Below are positions 4,532-23,763 of a stretch of 23,946 nt of DNA, in pieces. The translations under genes and the position numbers were made by a program. The first letter of the stretch is position 1. The number at the start of each line of letters is the position of its first letter. The notes under the pieces were generated by a model. It saw only the letters and a list, made by a program, of their open reading frames with translations. It was not told the origin of the DNA and searched no databases. Source of the DNA: a virus (taxonomy: Duplodnaviria > Heunggongvirae > Uroviricota > Caudoviricetes); IMG/VR virus record IMGVR_UViG_2562617151_000005, one strand, 5' to 3'.

Positions 4532-4589
4532 AAAAAGGGCGGCAGAGCAGTCACGGAGTAAAACTGATACCGCCAAACGTCACCAGAAA
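4532..4589 (-). ncRNA. dicF: DicF small RNA (ftsZ-targeting) with intrinsic terminator
   Basis: Minus-strand sequence TTTCTGGTGACGTTTGGCGGTATCAGTTTTACTCCGTGACTGCTCTGCCGCCCTTTTT matches my recollection of DicF; GC stem plus U-run at the 3' end; directly upstream of dicB. Confidence 0.8.
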
Positions 4590-9522: not shown

Positions 9523-10036
9523 CTAATACTGGGGCAACAAGATATCTGATGAGCGTTCTGGCCAGAGAGCTGGTTGCCAGTGGCGATGTATACAACTCTG
9601 GTTACGGGTTATTCCCGTCTGAACAGGCGCGTAAGGACTGGCAAAATGCCCGTAAAAAGCTCTCAAGGGCAAAGCTGAAGAAACCATCTGCGGTTGATCC
9701 GGACCTTATCTGGTCATTACCTGACGGAGAAATACGTCGCTACGACAGGCGTCAGAACATAATCTGTCGCGAGTGCCGGAAGAGTGAAGTTATGCAGCGC
9801 ATATTGTCGTTTTATCAGGGTGATGTTCGGTATTTATTGAAGTGACGAGATTAAAGTGCATTAGTTCAGATGCAAATTGACATTTTGTGGCACAGGGTAG
9901 AGCTAGCGTGGTTGTCCGCTTTGTGCCAATAGCGGACATTGCTGGCTCATGGTATGTTAGTTTAAGGAGGCAGGTTATGCCCTGTATTTCGCTGTGGTAT
10001 AATAGTTGCGCAATTGATACAAGGGAGCGTTACATC

Positions 10037-10999
10037 GTGAAAATTGTTTTCGAGGTTAATGGAAAGAAAGTTCCACTAAAATCTTTAAAATACATAAGCA
10101 AAAAAGATCAACTCGAAGTAATGAAAAACTGGTTCTTTGAAAACTTTGAAGATCCGGCAAATGCTTGTCCGTATGAAAGTAGAGAAGGTGGCTATGCTTA
10201 CATATATGGCGGGCCGTATGATGCGAGCGAAGAACTACAATCCATCTTCGGTCAATATGTTAAATCTGAGTATATTGAGGAATTAGTAGATGAATTACAA
10301 ACACAATGTTTTGACTGGTCTGGAAACTCAAATAATATAGATGATTGGTACGATGATGATATCTACGACGCTGTAACGTCTTCCGGTAATCCGTATTTAA
10401 AATTCATTGATAATATCGATAAAATAAAAAAACTTGCAAAAGATAAAACTGAACAACAGCAAAAAAACCACTTGCTTAGTTTGCTCTACACGAATGTTAT
10501 TACAGCTTTGGAAACGCTTTATGTTGAGCTATTCATTAATTCTATAGAGAAAGATGATGTCTACATAGCCAATTGTATAGAAAAAGGTAAGACTGAATTT
10601 AAAGTAAGCAAAGATATTGCTGCGTTGCCTTTCAAGGGTGAACCCATCGAGAAAATTAGGGGAGAGCTAATCAGGTCAATCAAGGAACACTTGATCAGTG
10701 CAAGCTGGCATAGCACTAAAAAGGTAATCGACCGCTATGAAGCTACATTCGATATAAAAGTACAAAAAGACTGTCCGATAGAAGCTATTGAATTGGCAAC
10801 CCTCAATCGAAATCACTTAGTGCATCGTGGTGGAAAGGATAAAGAAGGGAACCTCGTAGTGATTACAGACCAGGATCTTGAAACGCTGATTGAAAATGCA
10901 TCGAACCTGGCAATTATGCTCTACAACAGTTTAAATGTAGCAACGAATAAAACCACCATTTTGCAACCAGATGACAAACCGTTCATTCATGAATTTTAA
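10037..10999 (+). CDS. Hypothetical protein A of AT-rich cassette (about 320 aa) with C-terminal HEPN-like Rx4H motif
   Basis: Long ORF; proposed GTG start at 10037 preceded by AGGGA; TTGACA at 9878-9883 upstream; motif LNRNHLVHRGG near C-terminus; markedly AT-rich by eye. Confidence 0.6.
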   Translation: MKIVFEVNGKKVPLKSLKYISKKDQLEVMKNWFFENFEDPANACPYESREGGYAYIYGGPYDASEELQSIFGQYVKSEYIEELVDELQTQCFDWSGNSNNIDDWYDDDIYDAVTSSGNPYLKFIDNIDKIKKLAKDKTEQQQKNHLLSLLYTNVITALETLYVELFINSIEKDDVYIANCIEKGKTEFKVSKDIAALPFKGEPIEKIRGELIRSIKEHLISASWHSTKKVIDRYEATFDIKVQKDCPIEAIELATLNRNHLVHRGGKDKEGNLVVITDQDLETLIENASNLAIMLYNSLNVATNKTTILQPDDKPFIHEF

Positions 11000-11014: not shown

Positions 11015-12016
11015 ATGGATATTCGCACACGAAAGACAAAATTTTTAGAGTCGTTAGATTCAACTGAAGTGATACGCAAAGCAGTAAGTCTCGCTATAGA
11101 TTGCATTATTGATAATCATAATAGTAATGAAGATACCCCCTTAGTTATTACCAGCTATGATGATCTCTGTAGAATCCAGGTGCTAAATTATGTACAGGAG
11201 TTTTGCGAAGCTGCATTCCCTGATATGGATGAATATTACTTTAGTCCTAACATACTTCGCATCAACGGCAAGACTAGTGAAGAAGCTTGTATTAACTTAA
11301 TTAAACTCTTAAGAAGTACAAAAGGCATGCTATTCTGGTCCGATGCCCCATCGTGGTTCGCTAGCCTCCCCGACGGATTATTCCATGTTGTTAACATTGA
11401 TCAAAAAATCGTTACTCGCGGCCTTAATAAGAAAAACTCTAAGCCGACAATAATCAATAAAGATTACAGTGTAGATACACTACTATCAGAGCTATTTTTG
11501 AATGGCGCACACATGGAGCAACCCAACGTACACAACGTTTCTGAGGGAAACATGAAGTTCTATGATGAATGCCATGCTGGATTAATCAGACCAATACCCG
11601 CTCCAATAGGCGCGTCATACGATGAAGAGATCACAATTAATTCTCCAGATTGGCAAAAGCTCGCGTGTGTAGCTTTACGCCGCTATCAGTCGAAGGAATG
11701 TCATGACGGAATGCAATGGGATACAACCGATCATGGTTGGACTGATGTAATCGCGTATCCATTCGTCGAAGAAATACAATCAATGGATAATAGTGGTTAT
11801 CGACAATGTTTAGTTGGGCTGGTCACAATAAACAATTCAAATGCAAATTCTCCGTACCTATCTACCGTTTGGATACATCTATTTTATCGCAGGAGAGGGT
11901 TATTAAGTAAGTTATGGCCAAAATTACAAGAGTTATATGGAAGTAACTTCGAAATTGAGCGACCTAATGAAAATATGAAAGCATTTCTGAAAAGTGCGAA
12001 ACACGCAGATTACTAA
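11015..12016 (+). CDS. Hypothetical protein B of AT-rich cassette (333 aa)
   Basis: ORF 15 nt downstream of gene A on the same strand; AT-rich; no Walker A or other recognisable motif. Confidence 0.6.
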   Translation: MDIRTRKTKFLESLDSTEVIRKAVSLAIDCIIDNHNSNEDTPLVITSYDDLCRIQVLNYVQEFCEAAFPDMDEYYFSPNILRINGKTSEEACINLIKLLRSTKGMLFWSDAPSWFASLPDGLFHVVNIDQKIVTRGLNKKNSKPTIINKDYSVDTLLSELFLNGAHMEQPNVHNVSEGNMKFYDECHAGLIRPIPAPIGASYDEEITINSPDWQKLACVALRRYQSKECHDGMQWDTTDHGWTDVIAYPFVEEIQSMDNSGYRQCLVGLVTINNSNANSPYLSTVWIHLFYRRRGLLSKLWPKLQELYGSNFEIERPNENMKAFLKSAKHADY

Positions 12017-12332
12017 TTTATGAATCAGTCTGTGGAGTTAGGGTTGGTGTGAACAAGTAGGGTAAGAGCCTCAACGTGATGCTATGCCGACCTGCTCCCT
12101 GAGAATTCACACAGAAGGCTGCTAGCAATGTCCGCAGATCGCTCAAAGCGGACTAGAAGGTTAGCTTGCGTCGGACTTGGCGTATTTAAAGAAGTGCTGG
12201 TGGTGACTGGTTGTTGTGTTCCATTTCTACAGAACAAAATCACAGAAACTATACCCAATAGTTATATTGAATCAATGATGAGACAGCCTCATATTTATCA
12301 GAACTGGTGTACGTCCAATACAGGAGGTTGTC

Positions 12333-12422
12333 GTGCTGGTTCTCAAATGTGCGCTAGCTATTGCGGCTGTAATGGCAATTTATTGTCTTGCTGTTGTTCT
12401 TACGGATCGCCTTTCTGATTGA
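12333..12422 (+). CDS. Candidate small hydrophobic peptide (29 aa, single predicted TM helix)
   Basis: SD AGGAGG at 12322-12327, 5 nt before GTG 12333; translation VLVLKCALAIAAVMAIYCLAVVLTDRLSD; not in the six-frame track because below the length cut-off. Confidence 0.3.
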   Translation: MLVLKCALAIAAVMAIYCLAVVLTDRLSD

Positions 12423-12476
12423 TTTTATATTGGCGAGGTGACGGGAGTTAAGTAGAATTGCTGCGGGTGCTTGAGG

Positions 12477-12512
12477 CTATCTGCCTCAGGCATGAACACC
12501 AAAGGCAGATAG
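12477..12512 (+). promoter_or_regulatory. Perfect 10-bp inverted repeat (CTATCTGCCT ... AGGCAGATAG, 16-nt loop) in the hok leader
   Basis: Seen directly; hok-family mRNAs are known to carry extensive leader structure. Confidence 0.4.
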
Positions 12513-12633
12513 AGAAAAGCCCCAGTTAACATTATGCGTCCTGCAAGACGTTTAACATTAATCTGAGGCTCAATCTATGAACGGCAAATCTAGGTTAGCC
12601 TCTTACGTGCCGAAAGGCAAGGAGAAGCAGGCT

Positions 12634-12789
12634 ATGAAGCAGCAAAAGGCGATGTTAATCGCCCTGATCGTCATCTGTTTAACCGTCATAATGACGGCAC
12701 TGGTAACGAGGAAAGACCTCTGCGAGGTACGAATCCGAACCGGCCAGACGGAGGTCGCTGTCTTCACAGCTTACGAACCTGAGGAGTAA
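12634..12789 (+). CDS. hok: Hok/Gef-family type I toxin (HokD/RelF-like)
   Basis: 51 aa MKQQKAMLIALIVICLTVIMTALVTRKDLCEVRIRTGQTEVAVFTAYEPEE; SD AAGGAG 9 nt upstream. Confidence 0.85.
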   Translation: MKQQKAMLIALIVICLTVIMTALVTRKDLCEVRIRTGQTEVAVFTAYEPEE

Positions 12790-12858
12790 GAGACCAGGCG
12801 GGGGAGAATCCCTCGCCACCTCTGATGTGTCAGGCATCCTCAACGCACCCGCACTTAA

Positions 12859-12884
12859 CCCGCTTCGGCGGGTTTTGTTTTTTC
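12859..12884 (+). terminator. Intrinsic terminator downstream of hok
   Basis: Hairpin CCCGC-TTCG-GCGGG followed by T-run TTTTGTTTTTT. Confidence 0.55.
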
Positions 12885-17163: not shown

Positions 17164-17239
17164 GGCCCTTTAGCTCAGTGGTGAGAGCGAGCGACTCATA
17201 ATCGCCAGGTCGCTGGTTCAAATCCAGCAAGGGCCACCA
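17164..17239 (+). tRNA. tRNA with CAU anticodon, Ile2-like (ileX/ileZ type) rather than Met
   Basis: Hand-folded cloverleaf: acceptor GGCCCTT/AAGGGCC, D-stem GCTC/GAGC, anticodon loop CTCATAA, T-loop TTCAAAT, encoded CCA; resembles E. coli ileX from memory. Confidence 0.8.
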
Positions 17240-17246
17240 TCACATA

Positions 17247-17323
17247 CCGCCATTAGCTCATCAGGAAAGAGCGCCAGCCTTCGAAGCTGGTTGCGCGGAG
17301 TTCGGGTCCCCGAAGGCGGTCCA
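17247..17323 (+). tRNA. tRNA-Arg (UCG) with atypical T-arm
   Basis: Hand-fold: acceptor CCGCCAT/AAGGCGG (one A-A mismatch), D-stem GCTC/GAGC, anticodon stem CCAGC/GCTGG, loop CTTCGAA, T-loop TTCGGGT with one T-stem mismatch, encoded CCA. Confidence 0.55.
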
Positions 17324-17336
17324 TTATCTGTATCCT

Positions 17337-17413
17337 GCGTTGTTAGCTCAGCCGGACAGAGCAATTGCCTTCTAAGCAATCGGTCACTGGTTCGAATCCA
17401 GTACAACGCGCCA
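17337..17413 (+). tRNA. tRNA-Arg (UCU)
   Basis: Acceptor GCGTTGT/ACAACGC, D-stem GCTC/GAGC, anticodon loop CTTCTAA, T-loop TTCGAAT, encoded CCA. Confidence 0.85.
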
Positions 17414-17458: not shown

Positions 17459-17672
17459 CTCACAATTCAGGCGGTTGACTGTTGTCTGGTTTGCGGGGAG
17501 TTTGTTAAAAGAAACTGGCATGGTGAATCCCCCTGTGCGGAGGGGCAATCAGCGAGTAGGTATATGGGATAATCGCGGATTCAGGTGCTGGTACTGAATT
17601 CACCGGGAGGCACCCGGCACCATGCAATGGCACATAGCGCCACTCTCCAGCCCCTCTCCGGAGGGGCTTTTC
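17459..17672 (+). other. Structured module A (about 215 bp), candidate sRNA or regulatory leader ending in an intrinsic terminator
   Basis: Shares blocks with module B: CTCACAATTCAG, TTGAC, TTTGTTAAAA, CATGGTGAATCCCCCTGNGCGGAGGGGC, CACCGGGAGGCACCCGGCACCATG, and terminator GCCCCTC-TCCG-GAGGGGC plus T-run. Confidence 0.4.
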
Positions 17673-17926
17673 TGTGCCGGATACATCACAGTTTCTGGAA
17701 CCTTAGGTACTACAGTATCAGTCAGGGTGCTATATTTTCAGATGTGATGAAAGCCTGTCAGCAGGCAGGGCGTATCGGAAATGACCCAGTAGAGAAAACG
17801 TTGACTCAGATACCGGTGCTGAGTTACCGGGAAACCGGCATCACATGACCGCTATCCTTCCAGGCCCATCCGCTCCGGTGGGCCTTTTTACTGCAGAAAA
17901 CAGGTTCCCCGTTAAATGCTATGTTG

Positions 17927-18160
17927 CTCACAATTCAGTAAGTTGACAGTTGCCTGTCAGACTGGGCATTTGTTAAAAAAATTTCGCATGGTGAATCCCC
18001 CTGAGCGGAGGGGCGACTGGTGACGGTATAATCTCTGATTATCAAAACGAGAATGACGCGGGTTTAGTGGCACCGGGCTGAACTCACCGGGAGGCACCCG
18101 GCACCATGTGCATGATGATACAGATACGCGGCTTTAGCCCCTCTCCGGAGGGGCTTTCTT
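17927..18160 (+). other. Structured module B, paralogue of module A with a TTGACA -35-like hexamer
   Basis: Same conserved blocks in the same order as module A; identical terminator hairpin at 18137-18154 followed by T-rich tract. Confidence 0.4.
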
Positions 18161-18166
18161 ATGGAC

Positions 18167-23179: not shown

Positions 23180-23763
23180 TGGCATTCAGAATGAGTGAAC
23201 AACCACGGACCATAAAAATTTATAATCTGCTGGCCGGAACTAATGAATTTATTGGTGAAGGTGATGCATATATTCCGCCTCATACAGGTCTGCCAGCAAA
23301 CAGTACCGATATTGCACCACCAGATATTCCTGCTGGCTTTGTGGCTGTTTTCAACAGTGATGAGGCATCGTGGCATCTCGTTGAAGACCATCGGGGTAAA
23401 ACGGTTTATGACGTAGCGTCAGGGGACGAGTTATTTATTTCTGAACTCGGTCCGTTACCGGAAAATGTTACCTGGTTATCGCCGGAAGGGGAGTTTCAGA
23501 AGTGGAACGGCACAGCCTGGGTGAAGGATACGGAAGCAGAAAAACTGTTCCGGATCCGGGAGGCGGAAGAAACAAAAAACAACCTGATGCAGGTAGCCAG
23601 TGAGCATATTGCGCCGCTTCAGGATGCTGCAGATCTGGAAATTGCAACGGAGGAAGAAACCTCATTGCTGGAAGCCTGGAAAAAGTATCGGGTGTTGCTG
23701 AACCGTGTTGATACATCAACTGCACCTGATATTGAGTGGCCTACGAACCCTGTCAGGGAGTAA
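23179..23763 (+). CDS. tfa: Tail fibre assembly protein (Tfa)
   Basis: 194 aa [39 protein letters not shown]... recognised as the lambdoid Tfa family; TAATG overlap with upstream stop. Confidence 0.8.

Follow-up and report, generated by a model that had tools for sequence, protein, structure and literature searches.

The stretch of DNA analyzed here (the window; 23,946 nucleotides of the Caudoviricetes record IMGVR_UViG_2562617151_000005) carries a hok-type toxin gene with a 29-codon open reading frame (ORF) upstream of it, raising the question of whether the small ORF belongs to the toxin locus, is a toxin itself, or is a separate gene that happens to lie beside a known module. Combined, the results make it probable that two independent modules adjoin in a Rac/Qin-like lambdoid prophage of E. 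coli, a hok/mok/sok module at 12430-12884 and a small gene at 12267-12422 (Table 1). The setting of both is the early-right (replication-to-nin) region of the prophage; at a 99.8%-identical locus, RefSeq places two hypothetical genes upstream and a DUF968 gene downstream. All of the sequence features named in the original prediction, an earlier reading of this DNA made from its letters alone, were located where it had placed them.

Table 1. Features of the hok/mok/sok module and of the small upstream gene (positions in the window).
Feature	Position	Strand	Description
Putative weak sigma-70 promoter of the small ORF	12267-12295	+	-35 TTGAAT (12267-12272), 17-nt spacer, -10 CATATT (12290-12295)
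Shine-Dalgarno (SD) sequence of the 29-aa ORF	12322-12327	+	AGGAGG, 5 nt 5' of GTG; read from sequence
29-aa ORF	12333-12422	+	(M)LVLKCALAIAAVMAIYCLAVVLTDRLSD; one hydrophobic helix, short polar C-terminal tail; on ORF list
hok promoter	12430-12458	+	TTGGCG, 17-nt spacer, TAGAAT; promoter scan
Full-length hok mRNA	12463-12884	+	About 420 nt, inferred start to terminator T-run
tac element	12465-12476	+	GGGTGCTTGAGG; fold partners fbi (full-length) and ucb (truncated)
Inverted repeat of the original prediction	12477-12512	+	Conserved leader stem of hok mRNAs
Sok antisense RNA (predicted)	12513-12589	-	About 71-77 nt; spans the mok SD and start codon in antisense
ucb / anti-SD	12519-12525	+	GCCCCAG; predicted folds and published model
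mok ORF	12577-12789	+	70 aa, in frame with hok, 19-codon N-terminal extension; on ORF list
sok promoter	12592-12620	-	-35 TTGCCT (12620-12615), 17-nt spacer, -10 TAACCT (12597-12592); read from sequence
hok toxin gene	12634-12789	+	51 aa, intact; HokD allele with V20M
fbi element	12838-12853	+	CCTCAACGCACCCGCA; pairs with the mRNA 5' end
Intrinsic terminator	12857-12884	+	Stem AACCCGC/GCGGGTT, loop TTCG, T-run; terminator scan

The toxin half of the locus agrees with the original prediction, which had described an intact hok-family ORF with its own SD sequence and a terminator. The 51-aa product has the size of the roughly 50-aa Hok/Gef toxins and matched their profile (Pfam HOK_GEF, PF01848) with 82.3 bits against a cutoff of 22; it also matched PHROG 251 ('MokW-like host killing') at 4e-33 and carries the name HokD in RefSeq. 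The SD sequence was found as GGAG at 12621-12624, and the terminator as a stem at 12857-12874 followed by a T-run. The in-frame mok ORF, which the original prediction had overlooked, overlaps hok, shares its stop codon and has an SD sequence of its own within CTGAGGC (12563-12569); an in-frame ATG lies 19 codons 5' of hok in 153 of 164 hok-bearing loci. In R1, the mok frame is different from that of hok. In the window, mok and hok share one frame, comparable to the mokC-type annotation of the Sakai homologue (ECs_1245, 'regulatory protein MokC').

Scored against the Rfam model RF01794, the leader of the hok mRNA reached 112.6 bits over 12465-12639 (gathering score, 59), and the hok promoter, which is conserved in Sp5 hokW, lies just 5' of the first model position (12465). 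A structured leader with a perfect 10-bp inverted repeat had been predicted, and its two arms, CTATCTGCCT (12477-12486) and AGGCAGATAG (12503-12512), were found to be a stem of the Rfam consensus structure, present in both predicted folds of the mRNA. In a sequence of the window's size and composition, chance would produce about 0.9 perfect 10-bp inverted repeats with loops of 3-40 nt, and the repeat is therefore not significant alone; it becomes significant because of its homology to the Rfam hok-leader model and because of covariation at the single position left free by the search pattern (A-T 139, G-C 32, T-A 1, G-T 4, mismatch 3). A weak minus-strand match to RF01794 (12399-12523, 18 bits) was rejected, as it arises from the palindromic leader stem.

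Both published conformations of the hok mRNA, tac/fbi in the full-length form and tac/ucb with mok-SD/dcb in the truncated form, were adopted in silico; the element names and the R1-type switch model are those of PMC9841398. The full-length mRNA is predicted to fold with a minimum free energy of -172.6 kcal/mol (z = -7.87), its 5' end paired with its 3' end and closed over this long range by a perfect 9-bp tac/fbi pairing (12462-12470 with 12845-12853), a 5'-3' pairing that the original prediction had overlooked. Natural variants in fbi are structure-neutral, one changing a bulged C to T and the other a G-C pair to G-U. When the last 48 nt are removed, the predicted fold of the remaining RNA (12465-12836) switches to tac/ucb and mok-SD/dcb, the same structure as the RF01794 consensus. 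The predicted partner of ucb is the mok SD before truncation and tac after it. The tac element also forms part of a metastable hairpin (TGAGGC at 12472-12477 with GCCTCA at 12483-12488).

A sok-like promoter on the minus strand had been proposed as a check across 12540-12640, and one was found at 12620-12592. The promoter is identical to that of Sp5 sokW, of which a 'pro-less' mutant was made with primers YO-421/422 that replace the -10 TAACCT (PMC8621323); other loci retain it, in part as the variants TTGACC and TAATCT, and it scores below the threshold of a simple promoter scan. The corresponding RNA, with a start predicted near 12585-12590, would be cis-antisense to the mok initiation region and is predicted to have an unpaired 5' tail followed by a long hairpin and a U-run (-27.1 kcal/mol, z = -4.40). 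The sokW RNA of Sp5 is reported to be 71 nt long and complementary to the hokW 5' UTR (PMC8621323), and the northern-blot probes of the hokW paper include one exact match (YO-597) and one near match to this region.

From the work on R1 and Sp5, we infer how the module at 12430-12884 would operate. The full-length hok mRNA would be locked, with tac at the 5' end pairing with fbi at the 3' end and ucb sequestering the mok SD, until slow 3' trimming removes fbi and the RNA refolds to tac/ucb and mok-SD/dcb. The refolded RNA would then either be bound by the short-lived Sok and cut by RNase III or, once Sok is depleted, be translated, with the translation of mok coupled to that of hok; Hok would insert into the inner membrane and collapse it. 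In a prophage, hok would most likely serve as a lysis aid after induction, as for hokW, and/or in prophage stabilization. Overall, the hok module is ordinary and already well known, and adds nothing new.

The 29-codon ORF upstream of hok was found with the AGGAGG, 5-nt spacer and GTG start that had been described for it, and its product is, as predicted, a single hydrophobic helix, with a best 19-residue Kyte-Doolittle mean of 2.56 (residues 6-24) and a GRAVY of 1.72, a hydrophobic stretch of the membrane-spanning type. Nearly all homologous loci keep an SD sequence here, in the form AGGAGG, GGGAGG or AGGAGA. Transcription may begin near 12302 from the putative sigma-70 promoter, whose hexamers and 17-nt spacing are conserved while the spacer differs between the window type, the L006 type and the Shigella pINV copy; this promoter matches only 8 of 12 consensus positions and was therefore not flagged by the promoter scan. 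Two further signals were rejected, namely a lipoprotein signal in the peptide (there is no lipobox, and a K precedes the Cys) and a terminator-like hairpin at 12357-12376, which has only 3 G-C pairs and lies within the coding sequence.

The small ORF is widespread within a narrow host range. Of 108 IMG/VR loci, about 105 have the ORF intact and preceded by its SD, and 4 phage genomes have it intact. Together with the SD it occurs in 1,896 of 5,426 complete E. coli genomes (35%, or about a third), and it is also carried by infectious lambdoid phages and by virulence plasmids of Shigella; carriers include strains BL21(DE3), REL606, UTI89 and ATCC 11775 and the phages HannyBb, Tritos and those of mEp460 type. 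The family also includes a 34-aa homologue. The virulence-plasmid copy, 76% identical to the 29-aa ORF, lies just upstream of icsP and adjoins a decayed hok leader, beside which it is intact, with an ATG start and an SD, on 136 Shigella/EIEC plasmids that are largely clonal and represent roughly one event. In about 11 other loci, the ORF occurs without hok, homology stopping a few bases past the stop codon and a yeaR-like gene replacing hok, and only about 37% of sampled prophage hok loci carry the 29-aa ORF or its 34-aa homologue upstream. The ORF is therefore genetically separable from hok, each occurring without the other. A degenerate-pattern scan of species-representative genomes returned 42 matches, of which 5 were real, all of them in Escherichia/Shigella or on contaminated MAG contigs, the others being chance matches inside unrelated proteins; as judged from these sequences, the family is narrow and confined to Escherichia/Shigella phage-derived elements in the genomes scanned.

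The ORF is almost never annotated, appearing as a 'hypothetical protein' (WP_000960667.1) in one RefSeq genome and as a 'membrane protein' in GenBank. The 29-aa peptide belongs to no family in Pfam, NCBIfam, PHROGs or PADLOC, the 34-aa homologue gave no match above threshold in Pfam or PHROGs, and a protein-database search with a 40-aa read-through variant (P0011) recovered its own cluster only. A literature search with the peptide sequence and accessions found no mention of it, and a search of the icsP/ospZ literature returned no paper in which 'small open reading frame' also occurs; novel small membrane proteins are listed in a Ribo-seq preprint on CFT073.

The small ORF would be unremarkable alone, and its significance comes from its conservation and its substitution pattern. 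Polymorphisms in the ORF are distributed 8/7/17 over the three codon positions, and synonymous and nonsynonymous changes stand at 15:16 in this frame versus 7-12 : 17-24 in the other five, counts that are small and drawn from copies many of which are closely related. The changes in the 34-aa subfamily comprise 7 synonymous and 3 conservative ones in addition to an ATG/GTG start swap, pN/pS between lineages is 0.26-0.48 (pooled P ~5e-4), and in the most divergent copy every helix substitution is hydrophobic-for-hydrophobic. With a synonymous excess specific to the frame, the 7:3 ratio and the low pN/pS between lineages, the substitutions indicate purifying selection on the protein sequence, and the 29-codon ORF is most likely a real gene of its own. 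A 96-aa ORF (12128-12418) and the ORFs on the minus strand of this DNA were rejected, as the synonymous excess is confined to the 29-aa frame. Some of these rejected ORFs are called in the annotation of phage HannyBb.

It is unlikely that the ORF is instead untranslated, its conservation reflecting recent common descent or a role of the DNA or RNA itself, for instance as DNA 5' of the hok promoter or as a segment of a read-through RNA. An open frame can survive by descent where most copies are >85% identical, PGAP omits the ORF in almost all genomes, some pairwise pN/pS values are near 1, and two copies are damaged (L097 is frameshifted and L087 lacks a stop codon). However, the third-position and synonymous excess is specific to this frame among the six and is repeated independently in the 34-aa subfamily and the plasmid lineage, the start alternates between GTG and ATG, both of them valid, with the SD kept, and the helix replacements remain hydrophobic. 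L097, the single frameshifted copy, is also the only one to have lost the SD, as expected of a dead gene. Additionally, the ORF is retained where hok has been replaced or has decayed, and it is therefore not simply hok promoter context. The same separability bears on the idea that the small ORF acts with hok, either through a peptide that modulates Hok or lysis timing or through read-through from upstream phage promoters into hok/sok, where a 5'-extended hok RNA unable to form tac/fbi, together with interference with the convergent sok promoter, would link Hok to induction. Supporting such a connection, the ORF or its 34-aa homologue lies directly upstream of the hok promoter in about 37% of sampled prophage hok loci, other small hydrophobic ORFs (such as the 27-aa MTWPEAF...YSICRW) fill the same slot in Sp5-type loci, and the terminator scan found no intrinsic terminator between the upstream genes, the ORF and hok. 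In Sp5, moreover, the sokW RNA vanishes and HokW appears only after RecA-dependent induction, by a route that was left unexplained (PMC8621323). Joint action is nonetheless improbable, given that hok without the ORF and the ORF without hok are both common, that the hok mRNA has its own promoter 3' of the ORF, and that linkage is expected anyway for neighbors in mosaic phage genomes. It is likewise rather doubtful that hok/sok is switched on by transcription that reads through the ORF from the early operon of the induced phage.

The original prediction had seen in the 29-aa peptide the profile of a type I toxin, which would make the ORF a second toxin-antitoxin module beside hok, checked by an unrecognized antisense or divergent small RNA. 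The peptide is a small, highly hydrophobic prophage product adjoining another type I toxin, and a minus-strand promoter-like site at 12451-12422 (TTAACT-18-TAAAAT) would yield an RNA complementary to the ORF's 3' end. This site, however, has lost the critical A of its -10 element in most variants (ATTTTA to ATTTCA) and is absent from hok-less loci and from the 34-aa subfamily, and the terminator scan found no terminator for such an antisense RNA. The region around the ORF is also without an Rfam match, and the predicted fold of the 12300-12430 RNA does not stand out from shuffled controls (z = -0.74, with 44 of 200 shuffles folding at least as well, compared with z = -7.9 for hok), its strong SD being exposed rather than sequestered. 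Furthermore, the ORF persists alone with its ATG and SD on Shigella plasmids. With neither a conserved antisense promoter and small RNA nor an SD-sequestering mRNA structure, the ORF is unlikely to encode a type I toxin, and this part of the original prediction is not upheld.

The product of the small gene is thus best read as a small inner-membrane protein. The alternative offered by the original prediction, a 'small membrane regulator', holds as far as a small membrane protein under purifying selection is concerned, while 'regulator' is too specific. The peptide would be translated and inserted into the inner membrane as a phage accessory protein, moron-like or early, and would presumably be non-toxic at native levels. 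A more specific but rather doubtful suggestion is that the 29/34-aa family represents an unrecognized phage inner-membrane effector, working with Hok (on lysis timing, or in protecting the lysogen from leaky Hok) or directed at the host; an independent host-directed role, if true, would be strong enough to keep the ORF intact on Shigella virulence plasmids after the decay of hok. The modest value of the locus lies in this gene, which looks selected, is almost always skipped by annotation pipelines and has no family, and which provides a well-defined candidate for small membrane-protein studies. Cloned prophage 'hok-sok' fragments may also carry an extra small gene; judging by its sequence, the YO-432 primer used in the hokW study begins at the 27-aa ORF that precedes hokW.

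Compared with known systems, the small gene resembles the small single-helix membrane proteins of E. coli and its phages (MgtS, YohP and the 27-aa MTWPEAF...YSICRW) in having fewer than 50 aa, one hydrophobic helix and a strong SD, and in belonging to a class usually missed by annotation; the 29-aa ORF lies on a mobile element and is unrelated in sequence to any curated family.

For the toxin module, the closest experimentally characterized locus is hokW-sokW of prophage Sp5 in E. coli O157:H7 Sakai (Takada et al. 2021, PMC8621323). The two share a lambdoid prophage home, the hok promoter, leader, mok frame, sok promoter (-10 TAACCT), Sok hairpin and fbi, with about 95% identity, estimated by eye from the alignment, between the hok -35 and fbi. 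It is for this closely similar Sp5 homologue that toxicity, Sok antitoxicity and induction-linked Hok production have been shown (PMC8621323). The loci differ in the C-terminus of the toxin (...VFTAYEPEE in the window, ...VFVDYESEK in HokW), in the terminator region, where the window diverges, in the upstream small ORF (the 29-aa ORF in the window, the 27-aa MTWPEAF... ORF in Sp5) and in phage position, with the window's hok between replication genes and DUF968/RusA/Q genes and that of Sp5 near the prophage end beyond the tail genes.

The comparison with hokD (relF) of the K-12 Qin prophage is of another kind. The toxins are nearly identical, with one change (V20M), and the 3' UTR is the same, including fbi and the terminator, but in K-12 the homology begins only at the hok SD, without the promoter, tac, ucb, Sok target or mok start. 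Additionally, K-12 hokD lies directly 3' of relB-relE, whereas the window has the complete regulatory leader and not the relBE-hokD (relBEF) arrangement; as had been pointed out in the original prediction, relB/relE are absent, both from the window and from its 99.8%-identical RefSeq twin. The gene that K-12 retains as a truncated hokD is present whole in the window, with regulatory regions essentially matching Sp5 hokW-sokW, and the module is the one studied under that name; the original prediction had overlooked that the locus amounts, in essence, to the published hokW-sokW or intact hokD module. In relation to the founding member, R1 hok/sok, the tac, fbi, ucb, dcb, mok and Sok elements and the metastable 5' hairpin can all be located, and the predicted switch between full-length and truncated folds follows the R1 model (PMC9841398). 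HokW is 44% identical to R1 Hok (PMC8621323), and the window's Hok, unlike that of R1, is of the same prophage type as HokW. The context is also a prophage and not a plasmid, and the likely role is accordingly a lysis aid or prophage stabilization rather than plasmid post-segregational killing.

The hok gene was found intact, as originally predicted, with an SD and a terminator stem followed by a T-run, and its 51-aa product matched Pfam HOK_GEF (82.3 bits) and PHROG 251 ('MokW-like host killing'); the toxin is the HokD allele with a single change, V20M. The leader matched Rfam RF01794 at 112.6 bits (gathering score 59), a family whose model, despite the name 'sok', represents the hok leader in the sense orientation. 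The overlapping mok frame, a 70-aa ORF in the same frame as hok, was found in 153 of 164 related loci and is annotated likewise in the Sakai homologue (Sp5). Additionally, the perfect 10-bp inverted repeat noticed in the leader is present and constitutes one stem of RF01794; approximately 0.9 perfect 10-bp inverted repeats at such spacing are expected by chance per window of equal size, and the repeat is meaningful because of the Rfam leader match and the covariation, not by itself. The covariation is real: at the one stem position that the search pattern did not fix, 179 related leaders carried A-T (139), G-C (32), T-A (1), G-T (4) or a mismatch (3).

The full-length hok transcript was predicted to be strongly folded (z = -7.87), with the 5' GGGUGCUUGAGG pairing with the 3' CCUCAACGCACCC and the mok SD paired with GCCCCAG (the ucb element). 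Removing the last 48 nt switched the predicted fold to tac/ucb and mok-SD/dcb pairing, the same rearrangement as in the published R1 hok model (PMC9841398) and also the RF01794 consensus structure. A simple promoter scan returned nothing on the minus strand at the sok region; the sok-like antisense promoter that had been proposed for a search across 12540-12640 was read there from the sequence. The predicted Sok RNA, a long hairpin (z = -4.4) preceded by an unpaired 5' tail, spans the mok SD and start codon.

Several observations concern hok and its leader at related loci. The UACG context at hok codon 47, near the Hok C-terminus, is preserved in the window; a 2026 preprint describes TadA A-to-I editing of hokC, hokD and hokE mRNAs that recodes Tyr to Cys, needed for a disulfide bond. 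At L005 (HB-Coli0), the mok ATG is lost while hok itself is identical, and a small hairpin 5' of the hok SD shows a compensatory change (GCC-GAAA-GGC to GACC-AAAA-GGTC). At L110, approximately 190-600 nt after the start of its 34-aa ORF (a divergent homologue of the 29-codon ORF), the hok leader with its Sok target hairpin is retained, and a gene starting MKELNKFRVIDLFCGAGG replaces mok and hok; this is therefore a foreign gene behind a hok leader, and its MKELNKFRVIDLFCGAGG looks like a cytosine-5 DNA methyltransferase motif.

The region under study is 99.8% identical to a prophage of E. coli Z1323PEC0008 integrated beside ompW. This prophage is a Rac/Qin-like lambdoid element, in which integrase, excisionase, dicB, racR, a YdaT-family gene, a DUF977 gene, two hypotheticals and hokD are followed by a hypothetical, a DUF968 gene, rusA, an antiterminator, tRNAs, and lysis and tail genes. 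In the window, a two-gene cassette (PHROGs 17908 and 16994) follows the DUF977 gene and precedes the small ORF, with faint matches only, to a HEPN/RES N-terminal domain and GNAT, and no significant PADLOC match; it may be an accessory or defence cassette of the prophage. The approximately 200-nt block 5' of the small ORF is conserved across many prophages, unannotated and without a match in an Rfam search, and it opens with a hairpin that lacks a T-run and, at some loci, has a perfect stem of 9 bp.

Features located in the window, in order of position
Feature	Position	Strand	Basis or remark
DicF sRNA	4537-4588	-	Rfam match
Cassette, first gene	9887-10999	+	
Cassette, second gene	11015-12016	+	
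Conserved block	12130-12330		
Hairpin opening the block	12130-12153		GTCCGC...GCGGAC
Promoter-like pair of small ORF	12267-12295	+	TTGAAT-17-CATATT; weak
29-codon ORF	12333-12422	+	AGGAGG, 5-nt spacer, GTG
Antisense promoter-like site	12451 to 12422	-	
hok promoter	12430-12458	+	TTGGCG, 17 nt, TAGAAT; promoter scan; just 5' of RF01794 match
hok transcript	about 12463-12884	+	
RF01794 match	12465-12639	+	
Inverted-repeat arms	12477-12486 / 12503-12512		
Predicted Sok RNA	about 12589 to 12513	-	
mok ORF	12577-12789	+	
sok promoter	12620 to 12592	-	TTGCCT, 17 nt, TAACCT
hok SD	12621-12624	+	
hok ORF	12634-12789	+	
hok codon 47	12772-12774	+	Tyr TAC, within TTACGAA
hok terminator stem	12857-12874	+	
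Three tRNAs	17164-17410	+	Rfam match; Ile, Arg, Arg in RefSeq twin
STnc100, two copies	17489-17679 and 17957-18166	+	Rfam match
IS009	23522-23720	+	Rfam match

The 29-codon ORF with its near-consensus SD was likewise confirmed, and comparative sequence evidence suggests that it is a real, widespread and largely unannotated small-protein gene. Searches of Pfam, NCBIfam, PHROGs and PADLOC returned nothing for the 29-aa peptide; an exact-sequence look-up showed that some GenBank/RefSeq records, REL606/BL21 and WP_000960667.1 among them, label it 'membrane protein' or 'hypothetical protein'. A degenerate-pattern scan of IMG/VR gave 120 loci, nearly all being true homologues that keep the SD and whose 29-codon frame is open; L097, frameshifted with the SD lost, and L087, with a stop-loss, are the exceptions. 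The ORF also occurs in four sequenced phages (Tritos, Evi, mEp460_ev081 and HannyBb) and, together with the SD, in 1,896 of 5,426 complete E. coli genomes, being unannotated in every sampled row. With codons fixed by the search pattern left out, variable alleles in the 29-aa group fell 8/7/17 by codon position, and the synonymous:nonsynonymous count was 15:16 in this frame vs. 7-12 : 17-24 in the other five frames; pN/pS between lineages was 0.26-0.48, and pooled within-group polymorphisms gave P of about 5e-4 against neutrality.

The 34-aa homologue, MSDDISLAMEGALAVIAVVGVYCLVVFLMDRLGN, came from unbiased sampling of loci by their hok leader; it is preceded by AAGGAGG, its changes are 7 synonymous vs. 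3 conservative, and its start codon alternates between ATG and GTG. Additionally, tblastn against plasmids detected a 76%-identical copy, MLVLKGTLAIAAVMTIYCLIVVLMERFSD, that starts with ATG and keeps the same SD; it lies upstream of icsP on 136 Shigella/EIEC virulence plasmids, beside a decayed hok leader remnant from which hok is gone. On the Shigella flexneri virulence plasmid (L270:2900-3200), the phage-derived remnant 5' of icsP comprises the intact 29-aa ORF and the decayed hok promoter and leader; an icsP/ospZ literature search by the phrase 'small open reading frame' returned no paper matching both.

It was concluded that the 29-codon ORF is not part of the hok module, because the hok mRNA starts 3' of it and because the ORF without hok, varied upstream DNA and hok loci lacking the ORF all occur. 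At approximately 11 loci, different DNA begins a few bases past the ORF stop, with a yeaR-like DUF1971 gene on the opposite strand in hok's place; at BL21-type loci a deletion junction lies approximately 25 nt upstream of the ORF start, and the upstream block differs in others. Only approximately 37% of sampled hok loci carry the 29-aa ORF or its 34-aa homologue upstream. The promoter-like pair of the small ORF is conserved in position, with different spacer sequence, in three lineages, a hint of independent expression. A functional tie to hok, via the peptide or via read-through transcription after prophage induction, is possible, and would be of interest if true, as the loss of sokW on induction is still without an explained route (PMC8621323).

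The original prediction had also given the 29-aa peptide the profile of a type I toxin or small membrane regulator. The peptide is indeed hydrophobic (best 19-residue mean 2.56), but the sole antisense promoter-like site at the ORF is not conserved, the mRNA folds no better than shuffled sequence (z = -0.74) and leaves its strong SD exposed, and plasmid copies of the gene persist by themselves. Were the peptide toxic, a gene with an open near-consensus SD and no antitoxin would not be tolerated; the product is therefore taken to be a small inner-membrane protein that is not toxic, or has only mild activity, and is not obviously a toxin. Overall, the sequence observations of the prediction held and its interpretation was largely right, the type I toxin alternative excepted.

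Other small elements occupy the region upstream of hok elsewhere. A separate 27-aa hydrophobic family (MTWPEAF..VG..MAV.LVVYSICRW.) sits immediately 5' of hokW in Sp5 (L173:35640-35760, minus strand) and occurs at L006, L019, L070, L110, L178 and L189, in several loci in tandem with, and upstream of, the 29/34-aa ORF; tblastn located it in 94 phage records (933W and many Stx phages among them), where it is mostly labelled hypothetical, and it is absent from the window. Primer YO-432 of the hokW paper (PMC8621323), as its sequence was read, begins at this ORF. A third kind, a 41-aa hydrophobic ORF (...ILIFGYINALFLGVFMAVMCIEYWR), fills the slot at L185 and L207. At L177, L206, L226 and L236, a perfect 22-bp palindrome, CGATATGGGAATTCCCATATCG, lies between the 34-aa ORF stop and the hok -35; it has no T-run on either side, is absent from the window and may be a protein-binding site.

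The hok/sok module itself is already known biology. From the hok -35 through fbi, the window and Sp5 hokW-sokW are approximately 95% identical, by eye from the alignment; the promoter-less sokW primers of Takada et al. (PMC8621323) replace exactly TAACCT, the same -10 as in the window, the sokW northern-blot probes include one exact and one near match, and the predicted Sok RNA fits the 71-nt complementarity reported for sokW. Experiments in Sp5 displayed the toxicity of HokW, the antitoxic activity of sokW, a dependence on RNase III and Hfq, HokW production tied to induction, and a twofold effect on phage release (PMC8621323). As originally noted, no relBE was found in the window, unlike the neighbourhood of K-12 hokD, which lies directly behind relBE and is homologous to the window only from the hok SD onward; therefore, the window represents an intact, ancestor-like version of the gene that is truncated in K-12.
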